Source of the DNA: Tubulanus polymorphus
Taxonomy: Eukaryota > Animalia > Nemertea
DNA length: 64,000 bases
Reading direction: 5' to 3'
Assembly: GCF_964204645.1 (NCBI RefSeq)
Contig: NC_134027.1
Location: forward strand, 27,056,560 to 27,120,559
Below the pieces are notes generated by a model that saw only the letters and a program-made list of their open reading frames with translations, was not told the origin of the DNA and searched no databases. Positions 31,401-59,446 of the stretch are shown in pieces. The position numbers were made by a program, and so were the translations under genes. Every line of letters starts with the position of its first letter. Position 1 is the stretch's first letter.

Positions 31401-31797
31401 ATTATCTTTTTATCCATTATCGAAAGTGTATACATTCAGAAGCTGGCATTTTTTTCTCCACAAAAAACCATCCAAAATAGATTACCCCAGGAACTATCTC
31501 AAGCCCATATCGGCGAGCACCTGTGAACTGACAGACAGCGAAACAACCACAAAACGCTTGTGACATTATTGAATTAATTGAATTGTTATTATGACCCACA
31601 GTACACCACAGTGATGACTGACATACAATACATACCTCAGTAATAAACTTAGCAGCATCAGAAAAAACGAAGTAATCAATGTCAGTGAATTTAACCGCCA
31701 TCGTTCGATCCTGCCAGATTCCATACAATACAAACACTATTCTAATAGCGAATCCTGACAATAAATGCAACCAAATATTCATCATTTTACCACACAT
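28407..31797 (-). CDS. PIGM: GPI mannosyltransferase 1 (PIG-M), 5 exons: 31797-31636, 31004-30475, 29792-29534, 28817-28716, 28631-28407 (about 425 aa)
   Basis: Motifs VKFTDIDY (DXD), [66 protein letters not shown] and PAYFLEFKG; GT-AG introns in consistent phase. Confidence 0.97.
28875..29480. mobile_element. Cluster of short related elements (GGCC.GTTGCA.AGTC...AGACCAGTCTAAG family); relatives at about 10570-10715 and 31035-31152
   Basis: Recurrent, partly palindromic motif family seen at several intronic sites. Confidence 0.55.
30025..30375. mobile_element. Foldback/MITE with about 100-bp imperfect inverted arms carrying a tRNA-type B box
   Basis: GCAGGGATTCGAACCTGATGGCATC...GCGCAGCTT (30039-30130) pairs with AAGCTGCGC...GATGCCATCAGGTTCGAATCCCTGC (30270-30360). 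Confidence 0.7.
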
Positions 31798-31841
31798 TTT
31801 GACATAAACAAGGAAGTAACTTTATTTCCGGGTTAGTGTCA
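31798..31841 (-). promoter_or_regulatory. Proximal promoter/5'UTR element of PIG-M with two ETS-type GGAA cores; duplicated at 34522-34565
   Basis: Minus strand TGACACTAACCCGGAAATAAAGTTACTTCCTTGTTTATGTCAAA directly abuts the PIG-M ATG. Confidence 0.6.
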
Positions 31842-33135: not shown

Positions 33136-33805
33136 TCGTATCGTATCGTATCGTATCGTATCGTATCGTTTTCGCAGTCATTGAAGAAGGCCTATTGGCC
33201 TATAAATTTGATTGCCTCGGTGTTTCGCTTAAGTTGCCAGGTATTGCCAGCACTTTGGTAATAGCGGAAAACATAACAACATCCGTGAATTCCGATAACA
33301 TTCAGGTCCAAGTTAGTAGTGCTCGACCCGTAGTAGGAAATGCTTTTCTTGCCAGTGTTTATCGAGACGTAATTTGAAAGCATTTGTAGATGGAGCATTC
33401 ACTATATCTTCCGTGAGCGAGTTCCAGTTGTTCACCACTCTGTGACGGAAGGAGTATTTCCTGATATCCTTCTTAGTTCTCTGTTTTTGGATCTTCAGAG
33501 AGTGTCCTCTTAGATTCACTCTTCGTTGATCTCGTGGCACTAAGGAGTCTCCAGCGCGGTAGTTGTTATGAACCAGATTGTAGACAGTTATCATATCTCC
33601 TCTTGCTCTTCGATAGCTCAACGATGGAAGCTTTAGTTGTTTTAGTCTTTCGTGGTATGGTAAATCGTACAGATGTGGTACTAATTTGGTTGCTCGTCGC
33701 TGAATTTTTTCGTAATTGTCTACATCTTTTAGTAGGTGTGGGTTGTATTGTTCGATCGACGCTAACATATATTTTCGTTGCGCCTGTAGTATATACGCGT
33801 TTTAC
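33136..33805 (-). mobile_element. 5'-truncated CR1-clade LINE (ORF2 C-terminus plus 3' UTR with a (TACGA)n tail)
   Basis: ORF 33313..33768 has EKIQRRATKLVP.L..L.Y.ERL..L.L.SL..RR.RGD.I, LRGHSLK and FRHRVVNNWNSL, typical of the CR1 ORF2 tail; microsatellite tail at 33136-33168. Confidence 0.9.
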
Positions 33806-39442: not shown

Positions 39443-40929
39443 GGAACCTGCCTTTTAGAGGCAACAGCAGAAATGTCAAACTTACCATAATTCTGATGAA
39501 ACGGCGTGGAGAACTCGGCGCGCTGCTGTGAGAATGTAAAAATAGTACAGCGTTGCCCAATAAATAAGTGAATTTTCATTCTATGTAACTAGCACTGTTC
39601 ATATATGTGAAATAATAAAATATTGTAGAAAAGAATTGTATTTATTCATCATTGGCTATGTACGGATTATTCAAAGACTATTACGGAAGTGGCTGAATAG
39701 CCACTTTGAATAACAATTTGGGAAACCAACAGTTCTGAATGAGTGAATAAACAAACGAACGAACAAAAATCTACTTCTATTTTGAATCATATATCATCAC
39801 TTGCATCCCATACCGCATGATAAATGACGTCACCTCTATATACCCGTCATATGGAATACTGAACTTGACCGATTACTAGCACTGCCTTTTCAAAGTAATA
39901 ACAATTTACTGTCACTGCCGTCCTCTTCTGCACTACTAGTTTTAAGTTCATCTTATTCATTGCCTATATCATTTTCCCCTTGGAATGAAACAAAAATGAT
40001 AACTTATTTCTCCTAATCATCAGCCAGCTGGTCGTTTTAATAGCAGTTGATTTCTATATCTGCCGGGTCTATTACAGTCATGGGACCGTCTGGGTCAACT
40101 TTCAAGCTCAGCAGAAATAAACACGGAATCAATTTTGTATCCTAATATTTCAAAAAGTCCTTTAAGAAATCCTCATTGTGAAACTGGGCCCCAGCTTATC
40201 CGCTATAGATGAACTCTTCAACAAAATATAACGATTATAAACATTCATTTTATGGAGAATTGTATTTTATTAACGACATAATTAATACAATAATAGTGAA
40301 TACTGTTTATGCATTTCGCTAGGATTATACTAAAGTTATAGCACCAAAATTAGAATTGACAAATTATGAAAAACATTGTGAATATATAATATGAATAGAA
40401 ATAAACATGAATAATGAATATCATAATCATCATCGCAATCATCTCCATCCCCATATTAAATCCTGTTCATATTGATCATCTTAATCTTCCATTGGTTATT
40501 GCTGCTGTTGCTGTAAATAAAATTCACATTTAAAGAAAAAGTTACAAAATATTTCTATACTGTTTTGGAAAGGATCTTCTCTTTTGTACAGAGAGCTGCA
40601 GTCGACTCTTGGTGTCAGTAGATCTATTGGAGGTTTTTCACTATCATACGGACACTAATAAAACCAATCAGGAAACAAGTTCTTCAAACTTTAGGGCTGT
40701 GCCGGTTACTGACGAAATCAAGTTTATCGACTCACATGGTTTTTGATAATTTCCCGATATGATTGTTTTTAGTAGGCTAAGCGTGACTCGTGCTTACATC
40801 TTCAGTCGAACAGATCATCACCATCGTGGCGTTCATTGTCTATTACCAAAAATACATGAAGCATGTAATAGTAAGTATGCACAGGAAATAATGGCCCTTA
40901 AGCGTCTCGTTGCACTCGTAAAAACTTAC

Positions 40930-43230
40930 TATTCGGCGTCTAGTGGCACTTCGTAGCCGACGCTTCCTCAGCTAAATTCTCTGCCATAAAACTTACTATT
41001 CTGCGTCTCGTTGCACTCCTCAACCTGAGTTTTATTGGCGTTCTTGCATTCTGTAAGAGAATTCAGGGATTTATGACAAAATTGCAGTCGTCGAATGATT
41101 TACACTAAAACTCATCCAGATATCCATGGTTAGTTATGGAACTTGATTGACTTAAACAAATTAGATATTTAACCCCCCCCCCCCCCCCCCGGTGGGGAGA
41201 AACAAAACCTAGGATAGTCCCAATTCCATCAGAATGTGTCAATGCGTTTATCCTTGGTTTAAATGTTTGAAGATGACCCAGCACCAAAGACCTATAAATA
41301 TCTTACTTCATTCTAATGAAATGACCTGCTTGTGTTCATTTACCGGTGCTGGTGCTGGTTCTTCCGGAGCTTGTATGGCCGCTGGTTCCGGAGCTTGTAC
41401 CGGTATGGCTTACCTTCGATATTTTTAAAGACACATCAGTGCCATTTATCCTGTGGGGATTTGCCTCTATGATGCTAATCCCCACAGCGGCTGATACCGT
41501 CACAAAACAGTACCTTAGTGATCTACAATGAAAATATACATTACTCAGGAGTTGTAGGAGTTACTGCAATATAGAAGTAAATGTCTTTGTATAAAAAGGA
41601 AACATCAAGTTTCCGATGGGTTTTAATGGATCAGTTAATCAGGTAAACAACTCAGCTGTGACGTGAAATACTCAGTGTTTATGATCTGAACTTCCCTTTA
41701 TAATTCCTACCAACGTCTATATTACTTAATTATGAACATTAAACACATTTGAAATAAAGAAAAAATTATAAACTTACTGCTGCTTTCTGTTTTTAATAAT
41801 GTACGCTTTTTATTTTTCCAAATGGTTTCCATGTTGTTTTTTTTATTTTTCTAGTATTTGAACTACCACGGAAGTAGAGTTTTGCCTCCATTTGTGGAGT
41901 AAAGATGAGAATTATAAAACACAGCATCCGTTTGATAAACAGGTTGAATATAAAATCATTCATTAACTATGAGATTGGTTCATTAATCAGCTAAACAACT
42001 CAACTGTCATGTGAAACACTCAGTGTTTATGATCTGAACTTCCCTTTTTTTATTACTTTATTATGAACAATAAGCACATTTGAAATAAAGAAAGATTATA
42101 AACTTACTGCCCCTTTTTGTTTTTAATAAAATAAATTTTTTTTATTTTCCCATACTTTTTTAATTGTGTGAGAATTTTTCTTCGGTTGGCTAAACCTCTG
42201 AAGTACAGATTCATCTGTGGAGTAAAGAAGAGAATTATAAAACACAGCATCCGTTTGATAAACAGGTTGAATATAAAATCATTCATTAACTATGAGATTG
42301 ATACATTAATCAGCTAAACAACTCAACTGTCATGTGAAACACTCAGTGTTTATGATCTGAACTTCCCTTTATAATTCCTACCAACGCCTATATTACTTAA
42401 TTATGAACATTAAACACATTTGAAATAAAGAAAAAAGATTATAAACTTACTGCCCCTTTTTGTTTTTGATGAAAAAAACTTATTTTTCCATACTTTTTTA
42501 ATTTAGTTTGAATTTTTCTGTGGTTAGCTGTTCCTCTAAAGTACAGATTACAATTCATCTGTGGAGTAAAGAAGAGAATTATAAAACACAGCATCCGTTT
42601 GATAAACAGGTTGAATATAAAATCATTCATTAACTATGAGATTGATACATTAATCAGCTAAACAACTCAACTGTCATATGAAACACTCAGTGTTTATGAT
42701 CTGAACTTCCCTTTTTTTATTACTTTATTATGAACAATAAACACATTTGAAATAAAGAAAGATTATAAACTTACTGCCCCTTTTTGTTTTTAATAAAATA
42801 AATTTTTTTTATTTTCCCATACTTTTTTAATTGTGTGAGAATTTTTCTTCGGTTGGCTAAACCTCTGAAGTACAGATTCATCCGTGGAGTAAAGAAGAGA
42901 ATTATAAAACACAGCATCCGTTTGATAAACAGGTTGAATATAAAATCATTCATTAACTATGAGATTGATACATTAATCAGCTAAACAACTCAACTGTCAT
43001 GTGAAACACTCAGTGTTTATGATCTGAACTTCCCTTTATAATTCCTACCAACGCCTATATTACTTAATTATGAACATTAAACACATTTGAAATAAAGAAA
43101 AAAGATTATAAACTTACTGCCCCTTTTTGTTTTTGATGAAAAAAACTTTTTTTATTTTTCCATACTTTTTTAATTTAGTTTGAATTTTTCTGTGGTTAGC
43201 TGTTCCTCTAAAGTAGAGATTACAATTCAT
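40930..43230 (-). CDS. Split-RRM cassette unit 1: A exons 43230-43118, 42881-42775 (acceptor CAG>CGG), 42558-42451 (frameshift), 42214-42108, 41891-41778 (acceptor CAA, stop); B exon 41522-41414; Arg-rich C exons 41050-40997 and 40971-40930
   Basis: A = MNLYFRGLANRRKILTQLKKYGKIKKIYFIKNKKG(Q), ccacag|ATG...CA|gtaagt. B = SLRYCFVTVSAAVGISIIEANPHRINGTDVSLKISK, tgtag|A...AAG|gtaagc. C = NARTPIKLRLRSATRRRI and LRKRRLRSATRRRI. A+B is in frame and gives RNP2, RNP1 and PHxI(D/N)G of an RRM. Confidence 0.65.
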
Positions 43231-43320
43231 CTGTGGAGTAAAGAAGAGAATTATAAAACACAGCATCCGTTTGATAAACAGGTTGAATATAAAATCATTC
43301 ATTAACTATGAGATAGGTAA

Positions 43321-43616
43321 CACTGGGTTCTGGTATTAATTTTCAATTCTGACAGAAATATAACTTAGCGTCTGACCATTTCGAATTTGCGTATAGTAAT
43401 TTATTATGAATTAATATCGCGTAAAAGAATGTCAGAAGAGCGAACAAGAATGTACGTAGGCGTGAATGTAATATCTCAGCTACATTAAGTTTTCTGATAT
43501 AGCTCTACGAGCGGCCATAGAACTCGTTCTATGGAGCGCCGTAGTGGATTGACCCGATAGCACAGCGGGTAACCTCCCGGTCTGACGTGTAGTAGTTCGT
43601 GTCTTAGAAACCAGTG
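43321..43616. mobile_element. MITE-like insertion with CACTGG...CCAGTG termini at the edge of the A-exon array
   Basis: Termini CACTGGGTTCT / AGAAACCAGTG; similar termini occur at 24191-24415. Confidence 0.45.
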
Positions 43617-44916
43617 TCTCCACTCACATTTTAACATTCCTTCTTAGCTCTCGAGGAACGAGCGAGTTATTACGAGCCTGTCGACATCGTGTATTCAAAT
43701 ATTTCAATAAAATATTTCATGTCTTTTATCGAATTATCAGTGATATATTCCTATCTCTGTTATTTTCGTAGAATTTTAACAAAGTTGACCATGTCATCGA
43801 CGGATGTCTTCAATCGCATCGATTATATGTCGTTTAACCCGAGAAACAATGAAACAAATGCTCACATAAACGTACCGCAATTTTACATGAATTGGCTCAA
43901 TGCCAACTTCATATGGCTGACAATGGTAAACCAAAAACTTACTTTCGACTAAAATCTGTTCCATCATGTTTTATCTTCTACTTCTCTCAGAATCCAGTTC
44001 TCTTCCTATTCTTCATATTCATCTGCAATTGAAGAAAAAAGAAACAGTTCTTCAATATACAGGCAACTCTGCTCCGCTATAGGTACCAATAAACTTGATA
44101 CCAGTAGCAATTGCTGAAATTGTTATGTCGATAAAGACAAGAAATTGATGAAGACAATAATGAAATGGCAGCACAACTGAGGCATCAGAGATTAGATTTC
44201 AGGAAGATGAAATTTCAAATTTCAATTAGCTAAATTAATTAATTAGCATATCTGGACAAGAAATATTCATCTAAACAAATAGCCTGAGTTAACCAACTGG
44301 AAAAGCAAGGATTCACTTACGACACACAGAAATTAAGAAACTACTATCAGAGCATTGTTTAATTGACGATAAAAATCATAGATGCTAAACGTGATTGTTC
44401 CACAACTCTAATCATCATCAAACTCTGCTGCTCTCTGCACAGAAGAGAAGATCCATCCCAAAACAGTATATAGAAATATTTTGTAACAGGTTCTTGTGAA
44501 CTTATTTGATTTTCAGTGATCAACTATTCAGTAACAGTCGAGATGATTATGGTGATAATAATAATTGCGTTATCTTTTATTCATGTTGTTTTTTTTGTAC
44601 ATGCATTACTAAAATTTATTCAACTTCCATTTCTTTATAGCTTCATAATGTCCATTTGGTGCCATTGACTTGATTGCAACCCACAAAATTTATGTGTGAC
44701 ATTTTTATGTAAGAGTTTGGGTTCGATTTAGATTTTGCGTTCTCATAGCATCAAACTATGGAATGTAAGTTTTTAAACATACAAATGAAGCTAAAACTTT
44801 GCAGTGCCACAAGTTCAAAGAAAATTTATATGATAATTCTAGAAGTGTTTGCTTAAGCAGCCACTGAAGAGTGACATAGTTTGATATTATAAAGTGTGAA
44901 CAAACTCATCTCAACA

Positions 44917-45629
44917 TTGCAATTCAACGGGATAGGTGTGCACACCAAATGCAATTCAACAGGATAGTCGTACACACCAAATGCAGTTCAACGGGATAGG
45001 TGTGCACACCAAATGCAATTCAACGGGATAGGTGTGCACACCAAATGCAATTCAACAGGATAGTCGTACACACCAAATGCAGTTCAACGGGATAGGTGTG
45101 CACACCAAATGCAATTCAACGGGATAGGTGTGCACACCAAATGCAATTCAACGGGATAGGTGTGCACACCAAATGCAATTCAACGGGATAGTCGTGCACA
45201 CCAAATGCAGTTCAACGGGATAGGTGTGCACACCAAATGCAATTCAACGGGATAGGTGTGCACACCAAATGCAATTCAACGGGATAGGTGTGCACACCAA
45301 ATGCAATTCAACGGGATAGGTGTGCACACCAAATGCAATTCAACGGGATAGGTGTGCACACCAAATGCAATTCAACGGGATAGGTGTGCACACCAAATGC
45401 AATTCAACGGGATAGGTGTGCACACCAAATGCAATTCAACGGGATAGGTGTGCACACCAAATGCAATTCAACGGGATAGGTGTGCACACCAAATGCAATT
45501 CAACGGGATAGGTGTGCACACCAAATGCAATTCAACGGGATAGGTGTGCACACCAAATGCAATTCAACGGGATAGGTGTGCACACCAAATGCAATTCAAC
45601 GGGATAGGTGTGCACACCAAATGCAATTC
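44917..45629. repeat. 32-bp satellite, about 22 copies, containing the palindrome GGTGTGCACACC
   Basis: Unit AAATGCAATTCAACGGGATAGGTGTGCACACC with no spacers; the right half is essentially homogeneous. Confidence 0.97.
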
Positions 45630-45811
45630 TCCGACATAAACATTCCATGTGTACAATTCGATCACCTCATCCAGCACGATTCCAAAAAAGATAGAATAAT
45701 CAACGACAAGTTTAGTTCAATTATTAACTATGGCTCTTACTGAGGGTAGAGACCGGTATCCCAATCTACCAAAGATAAAGACCGGCAACTAGTCTAAATC
45801 CCGGTCAATGC

Positions 45812-46127
45812 AGATAGACGCCGATTGGTTCCAAGAATAACCAGTTTTTGATTGGTCCAGTATTCTTGGCGCATTGAACGTTTCGTACGGTTCATAATTC
45901 ACTACGACAATAGACTTTAAAATAGGAGAGATAGATCAAACACAAATAAAAGAAAGGACGAAATAGAAATAAACAACACTGAAAAGAACAGCCAGTTTTT
46001 GATTGGTCCAGTACTCTTGGCACATTGAACGTTTCGTACGGTTCACAATTCACTCCGAGATCGATCATAAATAGACCCTAGGCTAAAAATAAAAGAAAGA
46101 AGACAACGTTAGATACGACTGTGAAAT
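45812..46127 (+). promoter_or_regulatory. Duplicated CCAAT-box promoter/leader-exon module upstream of RRM unit 2
   Basis: Two copies of CCAGTTTTTGATTGGTCCAGTA.TCTTGGC.CATTGAACGTTTCGTACGGTTCA (45841, 45991); donor gtaagt at 46128; YY1-like CCGCCAT near 46241. Confidence 0.5.
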
Positions 46128-46328
46128 GTAAGTTTAGTTTGATTTTTGTTTCAAGGCCGACTTTAATTGATAAATGGGATGCCCATTAATCAATGTATCC
46201 GTTCTCCAATGAAATGTCAAATTTGTTCCATCGTAATCAGCCGCCATGTTTGCTAATTAACTGATTTTATATTCAACCTGTTTATCAAACGGATGCTGTG
46301 TTTTATAATTCTCTTCTTTACTCCACAG

Positions 46329-49300
46329 ATGAATCTGTACTTCAGAGGTTTAGCCAACCACAGAAAAATTCTAACTAAATTAAAAAAGTATGGAAAAATA
46401 AAAAAAGTTTTTTTCATTAAAAACAAAAAGCGCCAGTAAGTTTATAATCTTTTTTCTTTATTTAAAATGTTTTTAATGTTCATAATTAAGTAATATAAGC
46501 GTTGGTAGGAATTATAAAGGGAAGTTCAGATCATAAACACTGAGTGTTTCACATGACAGTTGAGTTGTTTAGCTGATTAATGTATCAATCTCATAGTTAA
46601 TGAATGATTTTATATTCAACCTGTTTATCAAACGGATGCTGTGTTTTATAATTCTCTTCTTTACTCCACAGATGAATCTGTACTTCAGAGGTTTAGCCAA
46701 CCGAAGAAAAATTCTCACACAATTAAAAAAGTATGGGAAAATAAAAAAAATTTATTTTATTAAAAACAAAAAGGGGCAGTAAGTTTATAATCTTTCTTTA
46801 TTTCAAATGTGTTTATTGTTCATAATAAAGTAATAAAAAAAGGGAAGTTCAGATCATAAACACTGAGTGTTTCACATGACAGTTGAGTTGTTTAGCTGAT
46901 TAATGTATCAATCTCATAGTTAATGAATGATTTTATATTCAACCTGTTTATCAAACGGATGCTGTGTTTTATAATTCTCTTCTTTACTCCACAGATGAAT
47001 CTGTACTTCAGAGGTTTAGCGAACAGAAGAAAAATTCAAACTAAATTAAAAAAGTATGGGAAAATAAAAAAAGTTTTTTTCATTAAAAACAAAAAGCGCC
47101 AGTAAGTTTATAATCTTTTTTCTTTATTTAAAATGTATTTAATGTTCATAATTAAGTAATATAAGCGTTGGTAGGAATTATAAAGGGAAGTTCAGATCAT
47201 AAACACTGAGTGTTTCACATGACAGTTGAGTTGTTTAGCTGATTAATGTATCAATCTCATAGTTAATGAATGATTTTATATTCAACCTGTTTATCAAACG
47301 GATGCTGTGTTTTATAATTCTCTTCTTTACTCCACAGATGAATTGTAATCTGTACTTTAGAGGTTCAGCTAACCACAGAAAAATTCTAACTAAATTGAAA
47401 AAGTATGGAAAAATAAAAAAAGTTTTTTTCATTAAAAACAAAAAGCGCCAGTAAGTTTATAATCTTTTTTCTTTATTTAAAATGTGTTTAATGTTCATAA
47501 TTAAGTAATATAGACGTTGGTAGGAATTATAAAGGGAAGTTCAGATCATAAACACTGAGTGTTTCACATGACAGTTGAGTTGTTTAGCTGATTAATGAAC
47601 CAATCTCATGTGTTGCTGTGTTTTATAATTCTCTTCTTTATTTCACAGATGGAGGCTAAACTCTACTTCAGGGGAAGATCGAATCCAAAAAAAATAAAAA
47701 ATATTTTTTAAAAATTAGGAGAAATAAAAAAAGTTTATTTCATTAAAAACAAAAAGGGGCAGTAAGTTTAAAATCTTGATTTCAAATGTGTTTAATGTTC
47801 ATAATAAAGTAATAGGTGTTGGTAGGAATTATAAACAACAAGACGCAGAATAGTAAGTTTTATGGTCGAGAATTTAAGAAATCAAAATCTCAATCAGTAA
47901 TGTTTTTCTAGCCTGTTTGTGACCTCATATGGTGTATGAGGTGGTTAAATATGGAACCGAATCCCCCGTGTTCAGTGTCATTTTGTCTCGTTTAAACAAG
48001 TTCCCAAAGCCTCAAATAAAATCAAGAAATTACAGCCTCATAAAGAAGGCGCTTGGAATCAAAAATAAAAACAGGCAGACTTTTTACTCAAATCAATAGT
48101 TCAATTTACATGACATAAGAATAAAGGCATCGCCAGGAATGTTTAAAGAAGGTTCAGATTGTGAGATGTTGTGTCACACATGACACCATTTGCTAATTGA
48201 CTGATTCTATATTCAACATGTTTATCACATCCAGCTGTGTTTTATTTATAATTTTCTCATTCAATTCCACAGATGGATTCGATTTTATTTGGAAAAAAAA
48301 TATCAACTAAGACAACAGTGGCAAGTTAGAAAAAAAAATTAAAAAAATTTGGCCAAATCAAGAAGGCCGTAGTTATAAGGAATAAATACGGGCAGTAAAT
48401 TTATGACTTTTTACTGAAATTACTGTACATGAATAAAGGCATCGCCAGGAATGTTTAAAGGGGTTTCAGATTGTAAGCATTTGTGCTACATATAACAGTA
48501 GTTTATCAGGGGTTTACTAAAACGCATAAATCCAGTGGAGTAAAATGGGTCCATCAAATCTTTCCTTTGAACCCTGCGTCCAAAACAGCAATTTTACAAG
48601 ACAATGGCAAAAGGAAATTTCCTGGGCCCGGTTTTATAGACTGCCGGGTATAGTGATATACTTAAAACACTACCCATAATTGGTTATAATAAACAACTAG
48701 CCATTTACAACTCCTAAACTGCAGTAACTCCTACAACTCCTGAGCAATGTATATTTTCATTGTAGATCACAAAGATATTGTTTTGTGACGGTATCAGCCG
48801 CTGTGGGGATTAGCATTATAGATGCAAATCCCCACAGGATAAATGGCACTGATGTGTCATTTAAATTATCGAAGGTAAGTCATCATGATTATTTGATAAT
48901 TCTATCCAAGTCCTCATCATTATTATTGTAGATCACAGAGATATGGATTTATTCTATGTTCAGCGGTAACAGTTGAACAAATAATCTGCGAATCCCCATC
49001 ACATTGATTGGGAAAATATAGTTTTTAAATTGTCTAAAGAGGTAAGCTATCATGAAATTTTATTCTTCAGTAATACCATCCAATCAGATGTATGGGATTC
49101 ATTTGAAACATGTCTGGAATTTAATATCAATAAATACTCACTATGCCTAATACGTCAGACAATTAAAGGGATGCTGTACATTAATAAGAGACATTCCCTA
49201 AACTGCAGTAATTCATCCCGAGTTCTAAATGTATGTATTATTATTGTAGATCAATGAAATACGGATTCATTGTCTGTGATACAGACACGGCAGAAAAAAT

Positions 49301-50538
49301 TATCACTGCAAATCCCCATCAAATTGACGGGGATATCATCTATTTTAAATTGTCTAAAGAGGTAAGCTATCATGTAGTTTTATTCTTCAGTAATACCATC
49401 CAAGGTATGTTCCATATTGAATACCGGTATTGTTCAAGTAATTACTTTCTAATTGGTATGGGGCCCAAAAGCAAGATATAGAAAAACAAATAATATCTGT
49501 TCCTTCTTCATCAGCAAACGTGGTAGAAACCATAATTAGCGAAAACCAACATCATATAGATAGGTAAGCTATCATAATATATTTAATGTTCATAATAAAG
49601 GAATATAGACGTTGGCAGAAGTTTTAAACTTGTGTCAGTTAAGTTTTGGCATTTACTGCATCAAAACTTGTTTAGCTGAAATATACCACTCATAGTTAAT
49701 GAATGATTTTATATTCAACCTGTTTATCAAGATTATAAATCTCGATTATATCAGCCTGCCTTCTGTGCACCAAACTGGGAAGATTTGTCACGTGAGACTT
49801 GATTTATCGGGGGTTTAATGACTGATTTTATATTCAACTTGATTATTAAAAGGATGCTGTGTTTTATTTATAATTTTCTCCTTTCTTCCATAGATGGATT
49901 ATTGCAAAATGAGATTTTCGGATATAACATTAAAAACAAGGGTAAAAGATATTAAAGAAAAAATAAAATCATTTGGGGAAATAAAAAAAAATTGTTATCA
50001 TAAAAGACAAAAACGGACGGTTAGTATCGATGAATCATTTTTCTAAAGTTGTTTATAAGGTTGTAAAAATATAGGTGTTGGCAGGAACTTTTAAAAGGGG
50101 TTCAGATTGGTGTAGTAAGCACTTGTATCACACATGACGGCGTGGTGTGGTCAGGTCTGACTGTTCTTAAAACAGACGAATCCACGGGACTTGTGACGGA
50201 GAAAATTTGAAAAATTGAGGTTCTGAGATGCAATATGAAAGGTTACTAGTAGCTTCTAATACTAAAAATCAAAGTTTAGAAACTTAGAAATTAAGGCCAA
50301 GAATTTAATATACAAAATTTTCATCTTGTTCACCTTCCATGCATAGCAGAAATAGTCAACCTAATTCTACTTTCATCTCGATATCTTTTTCATCTTGATA
50401 TCTTGTAGATATCTGGATAAGAACAAGTTTAGTGTAAACCATTCAAGGAATTGAATTTTCTCCTGAATTCTCTTACAGATTCCACCAAGAAGAACACCCA
50501 TGAAGCAGCGGCTACGAAGCGCGACCCGCTTAAGGAAT
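46329..50538 (+). CDS. Split-RRM cassette unit 2: A exons 46329-46435, 46672-46778, 46995-47101, 47338-47450 (intact), 47649-47761 and 48273-48394 (in-frame stops); B exons 48766-48874 (intact), 48932-49041 (frameshift), 49250-49361 (intact); further A exon 49894-50019 (+1 A); C exon 50479-50538
   Basis: Same splice-site signatures as unit 1. A2+B3 reads MNLYFRGLANRRKILTQLKKYGKIKKIYFIKNKKGQSMKYGFIVCDTDTAEKIITANPHQIDGDIIYFKLSKE, a complete RRM-like domain. C = IPPRRTPMKQRLRSATRLRN. Confidence 0.7.
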
Positions 50539-50634
50539 GTAAGTTTAGAAATTTAGAAATTATGGCTGAGAATACATATTTTCTTGGGGAGTAGAAGGTG
50601 GTTTAATGAAGCTGGAGCAGAAATAGTCAACCTA

Positions 50635-51790
50635 ATTCTTCTTAGCAGGTTCTCTCAAAAACACACAAAACTTCTGACGATAATACGATAATCAACACTT
50701 GATCAAACGACAAAATATAACAAGATATAAACGACAAAAACTTAAACTTTAAGTTCAATTTAATCTTTGCTTAGCACAAGTTTGCAGTAATCGGCTGGCC
50801 TATGCAAGATAGATGTTGATTGGTTCCAATATTAGGCAGTTTTTGATTTGTCTAGCCTCTTCTTAGTGGGTTCTCTCAAAAACACACAACTTCCGACAGA
50901 CATACTAACTATACGTACAAGACTCACTCTTGCGATAGAAAAAACTATTATTTAAAAAAAAAAGATTAACCTAAAAGTAAGTTCAATTTAATCTTTGCTT
51001 AGCACAAGTTTGCAGTAATCGGCTGGCTTATGCAAGATAGATGTTGATTGGTTCCTATATTAGGCAGTTTTTGATTTGTCTAGCCACTTCTTGGCGGGTT
51101 ATCTCAAAAACACACAAATCTTCCGATGAACATACCTACTAAACGCACTACTTACAGCTCTCGCGACGGAAAAAAACTATTTAAAAAAAAAAGATTTACT
51201 TAAAGTAATTTCAATTTAATCTTTGCTTAGCACAAGGCCGACTTCTAGAACATGAGAAGCCCATTAATCAATGGAGGTCTATATAAATTATAGGCCTATC
51301 CGGTCCCAACGAAATGTCAAGTTTGTTTCATCGTAACCAAACCAAGCGCCATATAGGAACATAAACAACCTGTATCGAGGTGCCGCCGAGCCAGAAGTTC
51401 ACGGCTCATACTGAACTGAATCAACTGAGTAAATCGATTTTAACGCTACCAAACTATAGATCTACAGTGCGTTCCATAAAAAATAAAAAAACAACCTCTC
51501 CAAAATCAACTAATTTATAAATTATGGCTTTACAATGAAGTGAATTGGAATCCAATTACGTTGATAATCTTCAATAGTGTTTTTGTTAAAAATAAGAAAT
51601 AATTGGGTCACCCATAAATGTTTCAGCGCACACGAATAAAATTTCTAGCTGAATTCTTAGCGGGTTCTCTCAAAAACACCTCGACCGTCGATTACTAGAC
51701 TTAAATATACAGAAATACATATTTAATTTTTCTATTATTAAAAAGATAAAAGACACTTAAAAGTAAGTTCAATTTAATCTTTGCTTCAAG
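50635..51790 (+). promoter_or_regulatory. Four tandem promoter/leader-exon modules homologous to 45812-46250
   Basis: Repeated TTCTTAGCGGGTTCTCTCAAAAACAC ... AAAGTAAGTTCAATTTAATCTTTGCTT. Donors at 50977, 51205 and 51763; the first copy has lost its GT. GATTGGTTCC boxes precede copies 2 and 3. Confidence 0.5.
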
Positions 51791-52196
51791 GCAGACTAAA
51801 GCATGAGAAGCCTATTAATGGATAAAGGTCTATCCGTTCCCAACTGAACATACAACATTTTGGCTTTTTTCCTAACAGCCATTATCAGATATATGGGATT
51901 CATTTGAAATCAATAAATACCCATATGCTGAGTTCTAAATGTGTGTATTATTATTGTAGATCAAAGAAATACGGATTCGTAGTTGTGGCCCCAGGAACGG
52001 CACAAAAAATCATCATCGGAAAAGACTGCTCTCAATATACGTAGAGGTTGTGGTAGAAACAAAAGCATTCTAACACAAGCATCTCTCTTTTCATAGCCTC
52101 ATCTCCTTCAGCTGAATGTATAAATTAATCAAATATAAAAGGGAAAGCAGCAGAAACAGAAACAGCCCCTGTAGCAGAAACAGAAACAGCCCCTGT

Positions 52197-52198
<2 letters not shown>

Positions 52199-52280
<82 letters not shown>
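52199..52280. repeat. (CAG)n tract, about 27 units, inside a degenerate triplicated extension of a truncated B exon (starts 51960)
   Basis: Directly visible; the flanking motif CCTCATCTCCTTCAGC recurs at about 52097, 52320 and 52434. Confidence 0.9.
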
Positions 52281-52643
52281 TGAACCTGGGCCAATATGCA
52301 TACATCTCTATTTTCGTGGCCTCATCTTCAGCTGAACGTATAAATCAATCAAATGCAATAGGGAAAGACCTACTCTCAATATTGAGGTTGATGGAAAAAA
52401 GTTAAGAATCCAAACAGAAACATCTTTTCATGGCCTCATCTCCTTCAGCAGAATGTTAAAATTATCATATGCAAAAAGGAAGGCAGCAGCAGCAGCAGCC
52501 GCCCTCATCAGGTGTATGGGGTTCATTTGGAATCAATAAAACCTCAGTCAGGCAATTAAAGGGGTGCTGTATCATTATTAGAGGACATTCCCTAAACTGC
52601 AGTAATTCATCCTGAGTTCTAAATGTATGTATTATTATTGCAG

Positions 52644-54989
52644 ATCAATGAAATACGGATTCATTGTCTGTGATACAGACACGGCAGAAAAAGTAATCGC
52701 CGCAAATCCCCATCAGATTGATGGGGATATCATTTATTTTCAATTGTCGAAAGAGGTAAGCTATCATATAGATTTAATATTCTTCTGTAATACCATCCAA
52801 TCAGATGTATGGGATTCATTTGGGATCAATAAATACTCACTATGCCTAATTGTCAGACAATTAAAGGGGTGCTGTATCATTATTAGAGGACATTACCTAA
52901 ACTGCAGTAATTCATCCCGAGTTCTAAATGTATGTATTATTATCGTAGATCAAAGAAATATGGATTTGTGGTTGTGTCCCCAGAAACGGCACAAAGAATG
53001 ATAAATGGTAATATCCCCATCACATTGATGGGGAAATTATTCATTTTGAATTGTCTAAAGTCAAAGAGGTAAGCTATCATGTAGTTTTATTCTTCTGTAA
53101 TACCATCCAATCAGATCTATGGGATTCATTTGGGATCAATAAATACTCACTATGCCTAATACGTCAGGCAATTAAAGGGGTGCAGTATCATTAATAAGAG
53201 ACATTCCCTAAACTGCAGTAATTCATCCAGAGATCTAAATGTATGTATTATTTTTGTAGATCATTGAAATACGGATTTGTTGTTGTCGACGAAAAAACAG
53301 CAGAAATAATTATCGCTGCAAATCCCCATCACATTGATGGGGATATCATTTATTTTAAATTTTCTAATGAGGTAAGCTATCATGTAGATTGATTCTTCAG
53401 TAATACCATCCAATCAGATGTATGGGATTCAATTAAAGGGATGCTGTTTCATTAATAAGAGACATTCCCCAAACTGCAGTAATTCATCCTGAGATCTAAA
53501 TGTATGTATTATTATTGTAGATCAATGAAATACGGATTTGCCATATGTGATGCAGACACTGCACAAAAAATTTTTATGTGATGCAGACACTGCACAAAAA
53601 ATTTTTCAAGCAAATCCCCATCAAATTGATGGGGAAAATGTCTATTTTGAATTATCTAAAGAGGTAAGCTATCATGTAATTTTATTCTCTGGTAATACCA
53701 TCCAAGGTGTATGTTTGTACAGTAGCCGTTCTTATGAGTCGGGGTACGTCAGAGGTAAGCTATCATGTAGATTGATTCTTCTGTAATACCATCCAATCAG
53801 ATCTATGGGATTCATTTGGGATCAATAAATACTCACTATGCCTAATACGTCAGGCAATTAAAGGGGTGCAGTATCATTAATAAGAGACATTCCCTAAACT
53901 GCAGTAATTCATCCTGAGTTCTAAATGTATGTATTATTATTGTAGATCAATGAAATATGGATTCATTGTATGTGCTGGAGACACGGCAGAAAAAATAATC
54001 GCCGCAAATCCCCATCAGATTGATGGGGATATCATTTATTTTCAATTGTCGAAAGAGGTAAGCTTTCATATAGATTTAATATTCTTCTGTAATACCATCC
54101 AATCAGATCTATGGGATTCATTTGGGATCAATAAATACTCACTATGCCTAATACGTCAGACAATTAAAGGGGTGCAGTATCATTAATAAGAGACATTCCC
54201 TAAACTGCAGTAATTCATCCCGAGTTCTAAATGTATGTATTATTATTGTAGATCATTGAAATACGGATTTGTTGTTGTCGACGAAAAAACAGCAGAAATA
54301 ATTATCGCTGCAAATCCCCATCACATTGATGGGGATATCATTTATTTTAAATTTTCTAATGAGGTAAGCTATCATGTAGATTGATTCTTCAGTAATACCA
54401 CCCAATCAGATGTTTGGGATTCATTTGAAACATGTCTGGAATTTAATATCAATAAATACTCACTATGCCTAATACGTCAGACAATTAAAGGGGTGCTGTA
54501 TCATTAATAAGAGACATTCCCTAAACTGCAGTAATTCATCCCGAGTTCTAAATGTATGTATTATTATTGTAGATCAATGAAATATGGATTCATTGTATGT
54601 GCTGGAGACACGGCAGAAAAAATAATCGCCGCAAATCCCCATCAGATTGATGGGGATATCATTTATTTTCAATTGTCGAAAGAGGTAAGCTATCATATAG
54701 ATTTAATATTCTTCTGTAATACCATCCAATCAGATCTATGGGATTCATTTGGGATCAATAAATACTCACTATGCCTAATACGTCAGGCAATTAAAGGGGT
54801 GCTGTATCATTAATAAGAGACATTCCCTAAACTGCAGTAATTCATCCTGAGTTCTAAATGTATGTGTATTGTTATTGTAGTTCATTAAAACATGGGTTAG
54901 TGATTGTATCCGCCGATGTGGCGGCAAAAATCATTGCCGCCAACCCGCATATTATTGACGGGAAGAATGTCCAGTTTAGATGGATGCAG
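52644..54989 (+). CDS. Split-RRM cassette unit 3: tandem B exons 52644-52755, 52949-53068 (frameshift), 53260-53371, 53521-53663 (31-nt internal duplication), 53946-54057, 54252-54363, 54573-54684, 54881-54989
   Basis: About 310-bp repeat units, each (t/c)ag|N TCA ... GAG or CAG|gtaagc. Six exons are open: SMKYGFIVCDTDTAEKVIAANPHQIDG.., SLKYGFVVVDEKTAEIIIAANPHHIDG.. (x2), SMKYGFIVCAGDTAEKIIAANPHQIDG.. (x2), SLKHGLVIVSADVAAKIIAANPHIIDGKNVQFRWMQ. Confidence 0.65.
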
Positions 54990-55673
54990 GTAAGCTACCA
55001 TGTAGTAATATTCTCTATCAGAGGTATGCTTCATAAAGAATATATAACCATACAGTAGGGTACGGATAAGTCAGACACGTCCAACTCAGATATACACATA
55101 TGTCGATGAATACACCAACCCAAATCACAGAGATGGGAGGAATATTAAATCCCGCTATGCAAAACAGGGTTAAGGGTATAACAGCTATAGAGACATTCAC
55201 AACTCCTAAACTGCAATAACTCATCCTCCTCCTAAATGTGTATCATGTAGATGGATTCACTGCTCTTCAAATGAATGAATAGTTGACAGCTATAACCCGA
55301 AATGCAGTGTCCATTTGATAGTAATGGTGTTGGTTTGGAAGAGTGTCAAGATTGTAGCGATATCGGGAGTGGATCAGGAAAGTTATTTGAGGCAGAGCAA
55401 TAAATGCGAACGCAAAGTATTCAAGAAGTACATCACTAGTTACTGCTGTCGTCAAAACCTTGATTCCGTAAACAGACAGATGCGATTACAAAGTGCAAAT
55501 AAAATATTTTCTTACCTTCTTCATTTTCCAAGCAACCCCTGTTCCTCATTCTTTTGATTCTAGTTCATTCATTTTCTTTCGGAAGTTATCAATTGCTAAA
55601 ATAAGACATGAAGTTGATCGTTTTTGTTCTCCCTCAAGGATTAAGAATTTAAGATTTAGTTGTTATCATTTAC

Positions 55674-57765
55674 CTTGTACATGCTCCAAACTGCAAAAAT
55701 GCCGATTGAGATTTCTACAGTTGACCTAATTTCTGTGTCCTGTAAGAGAAATTCAGGAATTTGTGAGAAAATCGCGTACTTACTAGGATGCACAAACTCT
55801 GATAATAAATAGCTTACCTCCTTTTGAAAGTTCAAATATTATATTTCCCCATCAATTTGATGGGGATTATCAGCAATTATATTGTGAGCTGTGTCTTTTG
55901 AACATACAATGAATCCACATTTCAATGATCTACAATAATAATACATTCACATGTTTAGAACTCAGGATGAATTACTGCAGTTTAGGGAATGTCTTTTATT
56001 AATGATACAGCACCCCTTTAATTGTCTGACGTATAGTGAGTATTTATTGATATTAAATTCCAGACATGTTTCAAATGAATCCCATACATCTGATTGGATG
56101 GTATTACTGAAGAATAAAACTACATGATAGCTTACCTTGTGAGCCAGTTCAAAAACTACATTATACCCATCAATGTGATGGGGATTTGCTTCTATAATTG
56201 CTTCAGCCGTTTCTGGTACCACAACAACGAATCCGTAGTGTTGAGATCTACAATAATAATTCATACATTTAGAACTCAGTATGAATTACTGCAGTTTAGG
56301 GAATGTCTCTTATTAATGATACAGCACCCCTTTAATTGCCTGACGTATTAGGCATAGTGAGTATTTATTGATCCCAAATGAATCCCATACATCTGATTGG
56401 ATGGTATTACAGAAGAATATTAAATCTACATGATAGCTTACCTCTTTCGACAATTGAAAATAAATGATATCCCCATCAATCTGATGGGGATTTGCGGCGA
56501 TTATTTTTTCTGCCGTGTCTGTATCACAGACAATGAATCCGTATTTCATTGATCTACAATAATAATACATACATTTAGAACTCAGGATGAATTACTGCAG
56601 TTTAGGGAATGTCTCTTATTAATGATACAGCACCCCTTTAATTGCCTGACGTATTAGGCATAGTGAGTATTTATTGATCCCAAATGAATCCCATAGATCT
56701 GATTGGATGGTATTACAGAAGAATAAATCTACATGATAGCTTACCTCATTAGATAATTTAAAACGTTCATTTTCCCCATCAATCTGGTGGGGATTACCAT
56801 TGATGATGTTTTGTGTCGTGTCTGGCGAACAGACAATGAATCAATGTTTCTTTGATCTACAATAATAATAATACATACATTTAGAAATCAGGATGAGGAC
56901 GATTAACTGCATCCTTAAGGGATTTTCTCGAAACTTGGTAAAATGAAGTCAACATTACAATATACACACATTTAGAACTCAGTCATGTGGAACACTCGGC
57001 TCTTATACAACATCTTATATCCTTAACCCCTTTAAAATTCCTGATGATGCCTATATTCTTGTATAATGATCGAACACTGAACCCTCATTCAGGGTCTGAT
57101 CTAAGCACTTCTCCGATTGCCCGGGATAAGTATATTCTCATCAGGGCAAGTAGGTTATCATTACCCGGGCTAGTGCAATTTCACAAAGCTTTTTTTCCCC
57201 ACTTGATACAACGGATGATAGTGCCACCAATCGGACTGCCTGTGTAAGGCAAGCAGCTTTTGGAGGGGGCAAGCAAAATTCCTGATAATATTGATAATTT
57301 TGAGCATTAAACACATTTGATATAAAAAAAGATTATAAACTTACTGCCCCTTTTTGTTCGTGATTATATAGGCCTTTTTTTATCTTCTTCCATATTATTT
57401 TTTATCGTTCTGCCAGTGGTTTTGACATCCAAACCACTGGCGAATAACTTGCAAAACACCTGTGAAATAAAGAGAATTATAAAACACAGCATCCGTTTGA
57501 TAAACAGGTTGAATATAAAATCATTCATTAACTATGAGATTGATACATTAATCAGCTAAACAACTCAACTGTCATGTGAAACACTCAGTGCTTACGATCT
57601 GAACTTCCCTTTATAATTCCTACCAACTTTATTATGAACATTAAATAGATTTGATATTTAAAAAAAAGATTATAAATTTCCTGCCCATTTTTGTTTTTAA
57701 TAACATAGGCCTTTTTATCGATATTTTTTATTTGATATTCCCCGAAAGTAGAGTCTTGAATCCAT
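55674..57765 (-). pseudogene. Split-RRM cassette unit 4: A exons 57765-57683 and 57459-57345 (both disrupted); B exons 56856-56745 (stop), 56553-56442 and 56247-56136 (intact), 55929-55818 (stop); downstream exon 55739-55674
   Basis: Reverse-complement copies of the same A and B cassettes and introns. The acceptor before 55739 (CCTGAATTTCTCTTACAG) matches the C-exon acceptor. No intact A exon is present in cis. Confidence 0.55.
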
Positions 57766-57893
57766 CTGTGGAGTAGAGAAGAGAATTAAAAAAAACAGCA
57801 TCCATTTGATAAACAGGTTGAATATAACAAGAGAAATCCCACAATAAGTTCAGCCAAAACGAGAAACTTGAGTAGAAGAGTTATATATATTTT

Positions 57894-57937
57894 TGCGCAA
57901 CGTTTCGGCTAAAGACTATTAGCCATCATCAGGCGTA
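57894..57937 (-). ncRNA. Minimal type I hammerhead ribozyme motif (Penelope-like element type)
   Basis: Minus strand UACGC-CUGAUGA-U-GGCUA-AUAGUCUU-UAGCC-GAA-ACGU-U-GCGCA: conserved core, stem II, palindromic mini stem III, short stem I. Confidence 0.6.
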
Positions 57938-59446
57938 CTGAGTACAGGAGAATATTACAAGATATTTATACAAGACCAAAACAATAGAAGCAGAGTGAGT
58001 GATTAAAATATTGAAAGGGGAATAGATTAAAGTAATGACATAACAACTAGAAAACAATGCTAAAGTAAGCAAGGCAAACTAGGGGCAATGTAGATTAAAG
58101 TAATTAATAAACAAAGACACAAGCTAAAGTGATTAAAACGGGAGGACAAGCTAAGGGGTAATCAAATAAAACAAAGAGAAGGAACATGAAAGGCGATAAT
58201 CAGTGAGTGAGTGGAAACAAGCAAACTATGATAAAGGCAAAACAATGGAGGGAATTAGTATAACGGGGGGGGGGGGGGGGGTACAAGAGAAGCGAGAAAT
58301 TTGGAGATCAAAATGTTGTGGGGGGAGAAACCGTTATTCAAATTAACACAATTTTCCAAGTTTTCAATAATCAGGGCCGATTCCATAATGTGTCGTTTAA
58401 TCTTTTCTGAACAGGTTGAATATAAAATCAGTTATTAAACCCCTGATAAACTATGTGACGCTTACAACACCTTACAATCCAAAAAACATCATTCACATAA
58501 CATGGGCGTCCCCAGGATTTTTTAGTCTTCCCCAGTCCCCAGATAATTTGTGAATTTCGTGCAAGCAGGCGCGTTCTGGTGCAATCTGAGGGTGATGGGT
58601 AGACTGGTTCCCGTTTATAGGTAGACTGGTTACCATTTACTTTGCATGTATCGATTTTATTTTGCTAATCTAGCAAATGCAGACCATGAACTGACGTTCG
58701 TCAACGTTTGGAAATTCACAAGCCCATGAATAAATTATTGCCACAGCTTTTGCCACTGCACTTCCAATACCACTGATTTGAAATTAAAATAGCAACATTC
58801 ACATACCTGTTTCCAAGCACGTTTTTAAACTGTCCATTCACTCATTCCTCAAGCATGTCAAGTTTGTCTCATCTCTTCTCTTTCTTGTAAGTTTGATATT
58901 CACCTGGTCAACGAATAAAGGTAAAGTATGAAACTAAATTGTACACTTACTACTTTCAGAAGCTCGCATTCATGACTGGCGAAAAATATCATTTCGCACG
59001 TGCGAGAATTTTGAATTTAGTCAGCTGACCATAGCGGACAATGGAAATGCTTACAATATACGCATGCGGTTTAATTTTCAAACTCGCTCGTTGAAGAATA
59101 TCAATTGAATATACCTTTAGAACGTTGTCTTGACTTTTTGAAATTTAATTCTAAACCCAATTTGAAGATGGAGACTGATTCAGAAACGTGTTCAACCCCA
59201 GGTGGTCGCCAACAGATATCAGCTATCAGCTGTTGATATATCATCGCTGGCGCGCATGACTGATAATCAGTTTCCGTTCGGAATATGCTCCGGAACCGAT
59301 TAAAGACTGCGACCCGGACTCACTGGCAGTCATGTGACCGTTCAAAATGGCTTCTGTCAAAACGAGGAAGTAACTGGCGAATAGTTCGGAATTTTCAATT
59401 TTCATGGAATTTTCGATACAGTTGCGCTTTCAATAACTCATACATA

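Follow-up and report, generated by a model that had tools for sequence, protein, structure and literature searches.

Tandem exon duplication is common, occurring in 7–17% of metazoan genes (PMC3342872). Several systems come close to the locus described here. The variable exons 4 and 6 of Dscam1 each code for the N-terminal half of an immunoglobulin (Ig) domain, which is joined to a half that does not come from an array (PMC3364881); the Dscam arrays of Daphnia are reported to show neither gene conversion nor copy-number variation within the species (PMC3236188). The ROCO-LRR and NB-ARC-TPR genes of Ectocarpus carry intact as well as inactivated exons on both strands, with splice sites retained by intact exons of the non-coding strand, form a recombination hot spot, and have been proposed to be shuffled at the DNA level (PMC3341825), and the MaSp2 and flagelliform silk genes of Argiope contain iterated introns about 97% alike, which may steer unequal crossing-over (PMC9779670). 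Here we analyze a locus of the nemertean Tubulanus polymorphus, contained in a window of 64,000 nucleotides (nt) (assembly GCF_964204645.1, contig NC_134027.1, positions 27,056,560 to 27,120,559), in which arrays of two kinds of exon, designated A and B, encode the front and the back half of a putative RNA recognition motif (RRM), and in which diverged exons sit within nearly identical introns. All coordinates are positions within this window, and exon copies were counted inside it. A literature search, with most subscription papers outside its scope, found no paper on this locus and no precedent for it in an RRM gene or a lophotrochozoan.

A profile search of the whole window yielded 14 A and 19 B matches, all confined to 41.4–57.8 kb; the B matches represent 17 units (one of them matched twice) and a remnant at 49508–49571 (+). 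With E-values of 1e-13 to 1e-41 for every match except this remnant, chance can be dismissed as their source. An earlier sequence-only reading of the window had estimated about 14 A and 17 B exons, and these numbers were matched exactly, including four intact A and eight intact B exons on the + strand. Judged by length, splice dinucleotides, and open frame, intact copies make up 6 of the 14 A exons (107 or 113 nt, ag/ATG...CA/gt) and 11 of the 17 B exons (109 or 112 nt), so 17 of the 31 units, which are spread over both strands, retain frame and splice sites. The tandem repeat periods are 323, 343, 311, 306, and 306 nt. Each A exon runs from phase 0 to phase 2, with the ATG directly after the acceptor, whereas each B exon is entered in phase 2 and left in phase 0. 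Every one of the 32 possible A-B joins of intact + strand exons is open, and together they give 24 distinct peptides of 72–75 residues; neighboring A-A joins meet a stop at codon 37 (3/3), and A-B-B joins meet a stop as well (7/7). The frame logic proposed earlier, in which the exons read through as A+B only, holds for these joins and has to be corrected in one respect: The B-to-A join is also in frame, and an A-B-A-B product is open. For the frame to stay open, A (front-half) and B (back-half) exons have to alternate.

The copies form three units. The left unit, on the − strand, comprises five A exons (41778–43230), of which those at 43230 and 42214 are intact, 42881 has lost its acceptor AG, 42558 carries a frameshift, and 41891 is broken, and a sole, intact B exon (41414–41522). 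The middle unit, on the + strand, begins with four intact A exons (46329–46435, 46672–46778, 46995–47101, and 47338–47450) and two that are broken by in-frame stops (47649–47761 and 48273–48394); these are followed by three B exons (48766–48874 and 49250–49361, both intact, and 48932–49041, broken), the B remnant, and a diverged, frameshifted A exon (49894–50019). Further downstream lies the large B array (51960–54989) with six intact exons (52644, 53260, 53946, 54252, 54573, and 54881), two broken ones (52949 and 53521), and a truncated one (51960), followed by a degenerate B-like unit (55251–55404, +), in which entry in phase 0 gives seven codons and a stop, with an AATAAA at 55399. The right unit, again on the − strand, contains a B array (55818–56856) with intact exons at 56553 and 56247 and stops in 56856 and 55929, and two broken A exons (57345–57788), one at 57459–57345 and one at 57788 with a deletion and a lost donor. 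The right B array repeats the + strand B array in inverted orientation (724 nt, 92%). Between the strands, A42214 (−) and A46672 (+) are identical exons, and B56553 (−) matches B52644 (+) at 99% identity. Some details of the B exons should be noted beside this. Most B acceptors (e.g., 49230–49249 and 53926–53945) are preceded at a distance of about 20 nt by a donor-like GTATGT, which could be a U1 decoy that represses B by default. In most B exons (53982–54057 and others), the codons for PHxIDG read as a short, perfect inverted repeat, perhaps by coincidence of codon use. The truncated B exon 51960 is fused to two related low-complexity blocks at 52015–52504, with a (GCA)28 run and, near 52300, an A-like fragment coding for LYFRGL; this may be a chimeric exon that has decayed.

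As judged from profile comparisons, A and B together are a colinear RRM of the hnRNP A/Musashi type. Against a hidden Markov model (HMM) of 49 eukaryote-type RRM domains, all 66 joins of intact A and B exons from both strands scored 25.7–35.6 bits, compared with 11.5–18.7 for B alone, 12.4–20.9 for the reverse order B+A, and at most 6.7 for 300 shuffles, although the B part of these scores is inflated, the 49 domains having come from proteins retrieved with the B profile. In the three joins inspected, the alignment runs across the junction without a gap. Because the 49-domain set had been found via B, we added an independent HMM of bacterial RRMs (119 of 120 bacterial RRM loci, two of them checked in Pfam as PF00076), for which the median was 10.7 for A+B and 4.7 for B+A, with shuffles reaching at most 5.9 and the weakest A+B joins (5.3) overlapping the controls. 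Taken alone, A and B match complementary halves of the domain, each below the Pfam cut-offs: A weakly matches RL/RRM_5 and RBM45, and B weakly matches the C-terminal half of hnRNP A2/B1 RRM1 (E 0.079). B also falls into RRM clusters of the Atlas (best score 0.85, to be taken as a lead only), and its predicted structure (predicted local distance difference test score 83.5) has MSI2 RRM1 as the first match, with all matches at E > 5. This RRM is nearest to hnRNP A2/B1 and Musashi, both matches being weak. A search of the B profile against 1.84 billion proteins retrieved ten, all of them multi-RRM proteins with RRM_1 (10/10); being generic members of this group, they were rejected as orthologues. 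Among metagenome contigs, 88 pattern matches were obtained in the search for orthologues, of which none was confirmed.

The features of the product that had been read from the translations alone, namely a split RRM with its RNA-stacking aromatics kept, in a small and very basic single-RRM protein, were all supported. At the established motif positions, the RNP2 aromatics (LYF) are present in all six intact A exons and the Tyr and Phe of RNP1 in 10 of the 11 intact B exons, being lost in B54881. The intron between the two parts falls in the beta2-beta3 loop. With the Arg-rich tail exon C described below, the predicted + strand product has 93 residues to the end of C and an isoelectric point of 10.7; that of the left unit would have 108–110 residues, 31 of them Lys or Arg.

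Sequence variation among the distinct intact exons points to selection on this reading frame. In A, 11 synonymous and 6 non-synonymous sites were classifiable (17 of 21 variable sites; expected synonymous share 0.19, P = 5e-5), and in B 23 and 35 (58 of 79; expected share 0.21, P = 0.001), counts that are not phylogenetically independent. The other two reading frames show no synonymous excess in either exon type. As the excess is restricted to the RRM frame, the A and B exons are best regarded as selected coding exons, and the frame specificity likewise led us to reject plain satellite DNA. Mean synonymous and non-synonymous divergence (pS/pN) is 0.29/0.059 in A and 0.56/0.25 in B, with mean pN/pS of 0.20 and 0.44, respectively, indicating net purifying selection.

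The flanking introns behave differently from the exons. They are 97.5% (A) and 88.5% (B) identical, and in alignments limited, by exclusion of the diverged rows, to eight of nine rows for A and 9 of 14 for B, diversity in the upstream intron versus the exon is 0.004 versus 0.097 for A and 0.053 versus 0.189 for B. Variable columns amount to 1/64 in the intron versus 21/107 in the exon for A (Fisher P = 3e-4) and to 15/96 versus 52/112 for B (Fisher P = 2e-6). For B54881 and B56247, branch lengths are 0.35 and 0.32 in the exon and 0.011 and 0.022 in the upstream intron, in trees with most inner branches unresolved. The four-gamete test is failed by 73 of 300 site pairs in A and 151 of 351 in B, and exon types with synonymous divergence of 0.3–0.9 occupy introns that are up to 95–99% alike. 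Recent tandem duplication alone is thus insufficient, and repeated exchange within introns is needed, with old exon types persisting. This homogenization of introns and the mosaic nature of the units are features beyond the earlier description, as are the probable shuffling at the DNA level and the part that the two inverted array pairs would play in it. An RNA gene within the introns was considered as a cause of their conservation and rejected: Of six Rfam matches at E ≤ 1, none lies in an A or B intron and none reaches the gathering score. Folding of the introns was no better than that of shuffles (z +0.41 and +1.72).

Candidate constant exons and promoter-like sequences limit the number of A-B pairs that can be used in order. 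In the left unit, the five A exons and the single B are followed by the Arg-rich tail exon C-left (40997–41050, −; 54 nt, phase 0-0), its partial Arg-rich copy C2 (40930–40971, −; 42 nt, phase 0-0), and a candidate last exon D (40400–40510, −), which would add four Gln codons and a stop and has a provisional 3′ end. The region around D exists in two homologous copies, inverted to each other (44202–44590, +, and 40804–40401, −), a trace of an older duplication-inversion. The middle unit starts with a promoter-like block and candidate non-coding exon 1 (45640–46127, +), with reverse CCAAT boxes at 45823, 45850, and 46001 and a donor GT at 46128, and proceeds through six A exons, three B exons, and the broken A to exon C+ (50479–50538, +; 60 nt, phase 0-0), with which C-left is homologous (E 2e-9). 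Repeated blocks homologous to the promoter/exon-1 block (50637–51854, +) follow, directly 5′ of the nine units of the large B array and with no A in between. In the right unit, the spacer of the tail-to-tail B arrays holds a candidate exon C-right (55674–55739, −), of which only the upstream intron resembles that of C-left (E 0.013–0.022, weak); the exon-1 block lies correspondingly in the spacer between the head-to-head A arrays. Immediately 5′ of that block, 22 copies of a 32-nt minisatellite occupy 44918–45629. An 83-nt segment with a leading ATG and a strong acceptor and donor (43942–44024, −) lies upstream of the left A array and is a possible alternative upstream exon; no homologue of it was found in the window.

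Exon C+ lies upstream of six of the eight intact + strand B exons, and a homology search of the window found no C homologue on the + strand downstream of the large B array. Because C+ precedes this array, only 4 A × 2 B = 8 joins reach C in order. The estimate of about 24 proteins made from the sequence alone therefore stands as a count of distinct open peptides, and shrinks to eight colinear joins once exon C is included; an A-B-C-B join meets a stop. It is possible, as a speculation, that the degenerate B at 55251 serves as last exon of the large B array.

The earlier reading had named an assembly artefact among the findings that would overturn it, and this is unlikely, because the copies differ from one another and contigs from the DNA run X1, which may be the source sample, match unique stretches at 47.6–52.6 kb without differences. 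These matches comprise the eight contigs listed, with depth 13.6–16.6, none of them spanning the whole interval; the comparison covered the locus apart from 40.4–45.6 kb and 52141–52289. At 53.6–59.4 kb, contig depth is mostly 28.6–33.4, with letter differences; those at 55.0–55.9, 56.1–56.3, 56.7–57.1, and 58.7–59.4 kb have depth 28.6–32.1 and one to six differences each. The simplest reading of these depths, which are a weak measure of copy number, suggests that at least 5 kb at 47.6–52.6 kb, including part of the + strand A and B arrays, is present on one chromosome only. Over the arrays, contig depth is roughly in line with multiplicity in the window (up to 10) and far below that of neighboring repeats. 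In runs X2 and X3 the A array has zero cover, to which we attach no weight. A search for sequencing runs listed three from a single study, none of them recorded as RNA, which speaks neither for nor against expression. A high-copy insertion without assigned strand (57828–58411; depth 1,000–22,000) splits the intron upstream of A57788 and is bounded by two copies of a word of about 16 nt. One 896-nt X1 contig of depth 18.2 joins 45640–46289 (+) to 57827–57598 (−) and so connects the block of exon 1, in reversed orientation, with the A exon at the far right. We think it rather unlikely, without calling it negligible, that this is a real inversion junction. A graph chimera is at least as likely, an insertion-free allele sharing a 32-nt word that would permit one at the junction; the depth fits that of the one-haplotype left part.

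To the left of the locus lies what we take, by eye, to be a UBE2Q-like gene ending near 38.0 kb, and head to head with it are exons of a gene (29450–31821, −) that appears to encode a PIG-M-like glycosylphosphatidylinositol mannosyltransferase. A fragment at 33313–33801 (−) is presumably the 3′ part of a reverse transcriptase frame of the long interspersed nuclear element type. An open frame of 454 codons (20445–21809, +) with 33-nt repeats rich in Thr, Ser, and Gly and a basic N-terminal stretch had no Pfam match at E 0.1. The gene on the right has a 51-residue exon 100% identical to a dysbindin-like protein of T. polymorphus (one match among 84 candidates); donor-like sites at 58808–58903 (−), located between the start of dysbindin and the right unit, suggest that these two may share a bidirectional promoter.

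The reading we favor, and which we hold to be evenly balanced between right and wrong, is that of a cassette locus with fast turnover, shuffled at the DNA level and giving mRNAs with one A and one B. A working mRNA would carry one A as the front half, one B as the back half, and then an Arg-rich tail exon; transcription would start from the exon-1 block, surplus A and B exons would be skipped, and wrong joins would be cleared by nonsense-mediated decay. Through recombination within introns that are nearly identical, cassettes are likely copied, exchanged, inverted, and lost, and the available A-B pairs likely vary between chromosomes. The repertoire would be modest, with eight colinear joins on the + strand and two in the left unit if a promoter is present there. 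Promoter and tail exons could be rewired by inversions involving opposed units, since exon 1 lies where two A arrays face each other head to head and a C-like exon where two B arrays do so tail to tail. The predicted protein is likely a fast-evolving RNA-binding factor, and its use in the germline would be a guess by analogy with the ampliconic pattern. A two-segment combinatorial RRM repertoire, in which the halves would be picked from separate arrays by exclusive splicing while DNA inversions move promoter and tail exons, is possible and in our view doubtful.

Several observations weigh against the cassette reading. Broken copies account for 14 of the 31 units. The intact A copies have equally strong acceptors and donors, and 20 intron-by-region pairings, with 15 shuffles each, gave no convincing docking-selector pair, the best (−30.5 vs. 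−25.0, standard deviation 1.8) being weak and located in the degenerate B exon beyond the B array. Three protein searches found no annotated protein containing a B exon, though the spliced dysbindin of T. polymorphus is in the collection. A second haplotype less than 90% identical would have escaped placement of the contigs. Of the eight young A copies, two have already been disabled by one lesion each, a proportion that neutral decay could yield by rough arithmetic rather than a formal test, and the selection signal may therefore predate the arrays; it could derive from one-A-one-B alleles later stacked by unequal crossing-over.

The arrays may be mostly by-products of such stacking, by which old A and B variants, alleles or paralogues of a gene with a single A and a single B, were brought together; each chromosome would express one fixed pair or none while the rest decays. 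This reading is unlikely in our estimate, though to be weighed seriously. It would account for the broken units, for a left unit with no exon-1 homologue in the window and a right unit with no intact A, for a large B array that has neither an A after C nor a C after it, for the missing B-containing protein, and for a + strand A array region apparently on one haplotype, and default inclusion of all A exons would run into the stop at codon 37. The 17 exons that keep frame and splice sites speak against it, as do the diverged exon types in closely similar introns, which imply that flanks were long exchanged without homogenizing the exons; use of several exon types therefore makes the explanation easier.

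A full Dscam-like or trans-spliced repertoire of at least 24 proteins would join any A to any B, including those of the large array. Either C would be skipped and 55251 used as the last exon, or the A exons would be trans-spliced, in the manner of mod(mdg4), to transcripts that carry B exons only and start in the promoter-like blocks at 50.6–51.9 kb. The mosaicism and the probable copy-number difference are unlike the Dscam of Daphnia (PMC3236188). There is also no constant C homologue after the large array, and no docking site above background except the one weak match in 20 pairings. We consider this reading improbable, even with all 32 + strand joins and all 66 cross-strand joins forming an RRM and with six intact B exons behind promoter-like blocks of their own and before a possible last exon with AATAAA. 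Hairpin-forming transcripts act as silencers at loci of genetic conflict, and by analogy the blocks at 50.6–51.9 kb, followed by B exons without a start exon, might drive a transcript through the + strand B exons into the inverted B array (arms of 724 nt, 92%, and 424 nt, 97%, 1.4–1.5 kb apart) that folds back and yields small RNAs against RRM copies, but this is very improbable, as it leaves the coding selection and the A arrays unexplained and the arms contain introns and intact splice sites, so that most of the stem would be lost on splicing.

If several pairs are expressed, the cassette locus would amount to a natural library in which RRM specificities are mixed and matched, and would add a lophotrochozoan example to Dscam-like or recombinational diversification; if the two-segment repertoire is true, each animal, and perhaps each cell lineage, would have its own set of RNA-recognition proteins. 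Even otherwise, the locus is an unusually clear example of diverged exons maintained within homogenized introns. In the cassette systems known so far, the proteins diversified are surface or immune receptors (Ig, LRR, and TPR), whereas the diversified unit here is an RNA-binding domain, split at the beta2-beta3 loop and variable in both halves.

In human DAZ and RBMY, which are RRM genes as well, exons have been amplified and have degenerated, and copies occur in inverted orientation and vary in number. What is amplified there is a whole RRM or a tail repeat that is read in frame, whereas the amplified units of T. polymorphus are alternative RRM halves. The variable exons of Drosophila mod(mdg4) lie behind their own promoters and are a possible parallel for the B-only block; trans-splicing has been demonstrated there and would be hypothetical here, and the predicted T. 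polymorphus products share no constant domain. With the silk genes, near-identical iterated introns are shared, but the silk exons are constitutive, in frame, and also homogenized, whereas neighbors of the same type in T. polymorphus break the frame and stay diverged.

The Dscam-like design proposed from the sequence alone proved partly right. As in the exon 4 and 6 clusters of Dscam1, half-domain exons of similar length and the same phases, homologous to each other, are repeated in tandem with short introns, and double inclusion breaks the frame. In Dscam1, however, only the N-terminal half is drawn from an array, whereas in T. polymorphus both halves are. The A and B arrays have no constant exon between them, and constant exons do not flank every array in the Dscam manner; the introns are homogenized, the units are mosaic, exons lie on both strands with 14 of 31 broken, and the domain is an RRM instead of an Ig domain. 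Exclusive splicing of the Dscam type would be hypothetical here. With Ectocarpus, the locus shares repetitive exon-intron units, intact and dead cassettes on both strands, and a recombination hot spot, and DNA-level shuffling is proposed for both. The Ectocarpus exons are whole, frame-preserving repeats, of which each protein uses many, and the proteins are candidate receptors that evolve under diversifying selection (PMC3341825); those of T. polymorphus are asymmetric, alternating half-domain exons (phases 0-2 and 2-0) rather than symmetric repeats, under net purifying selection. The locus thus appears to lack the constant flanks of a Dscam-type cluster, may use exclusive splicing, and resembles a cassette-shuffling system.

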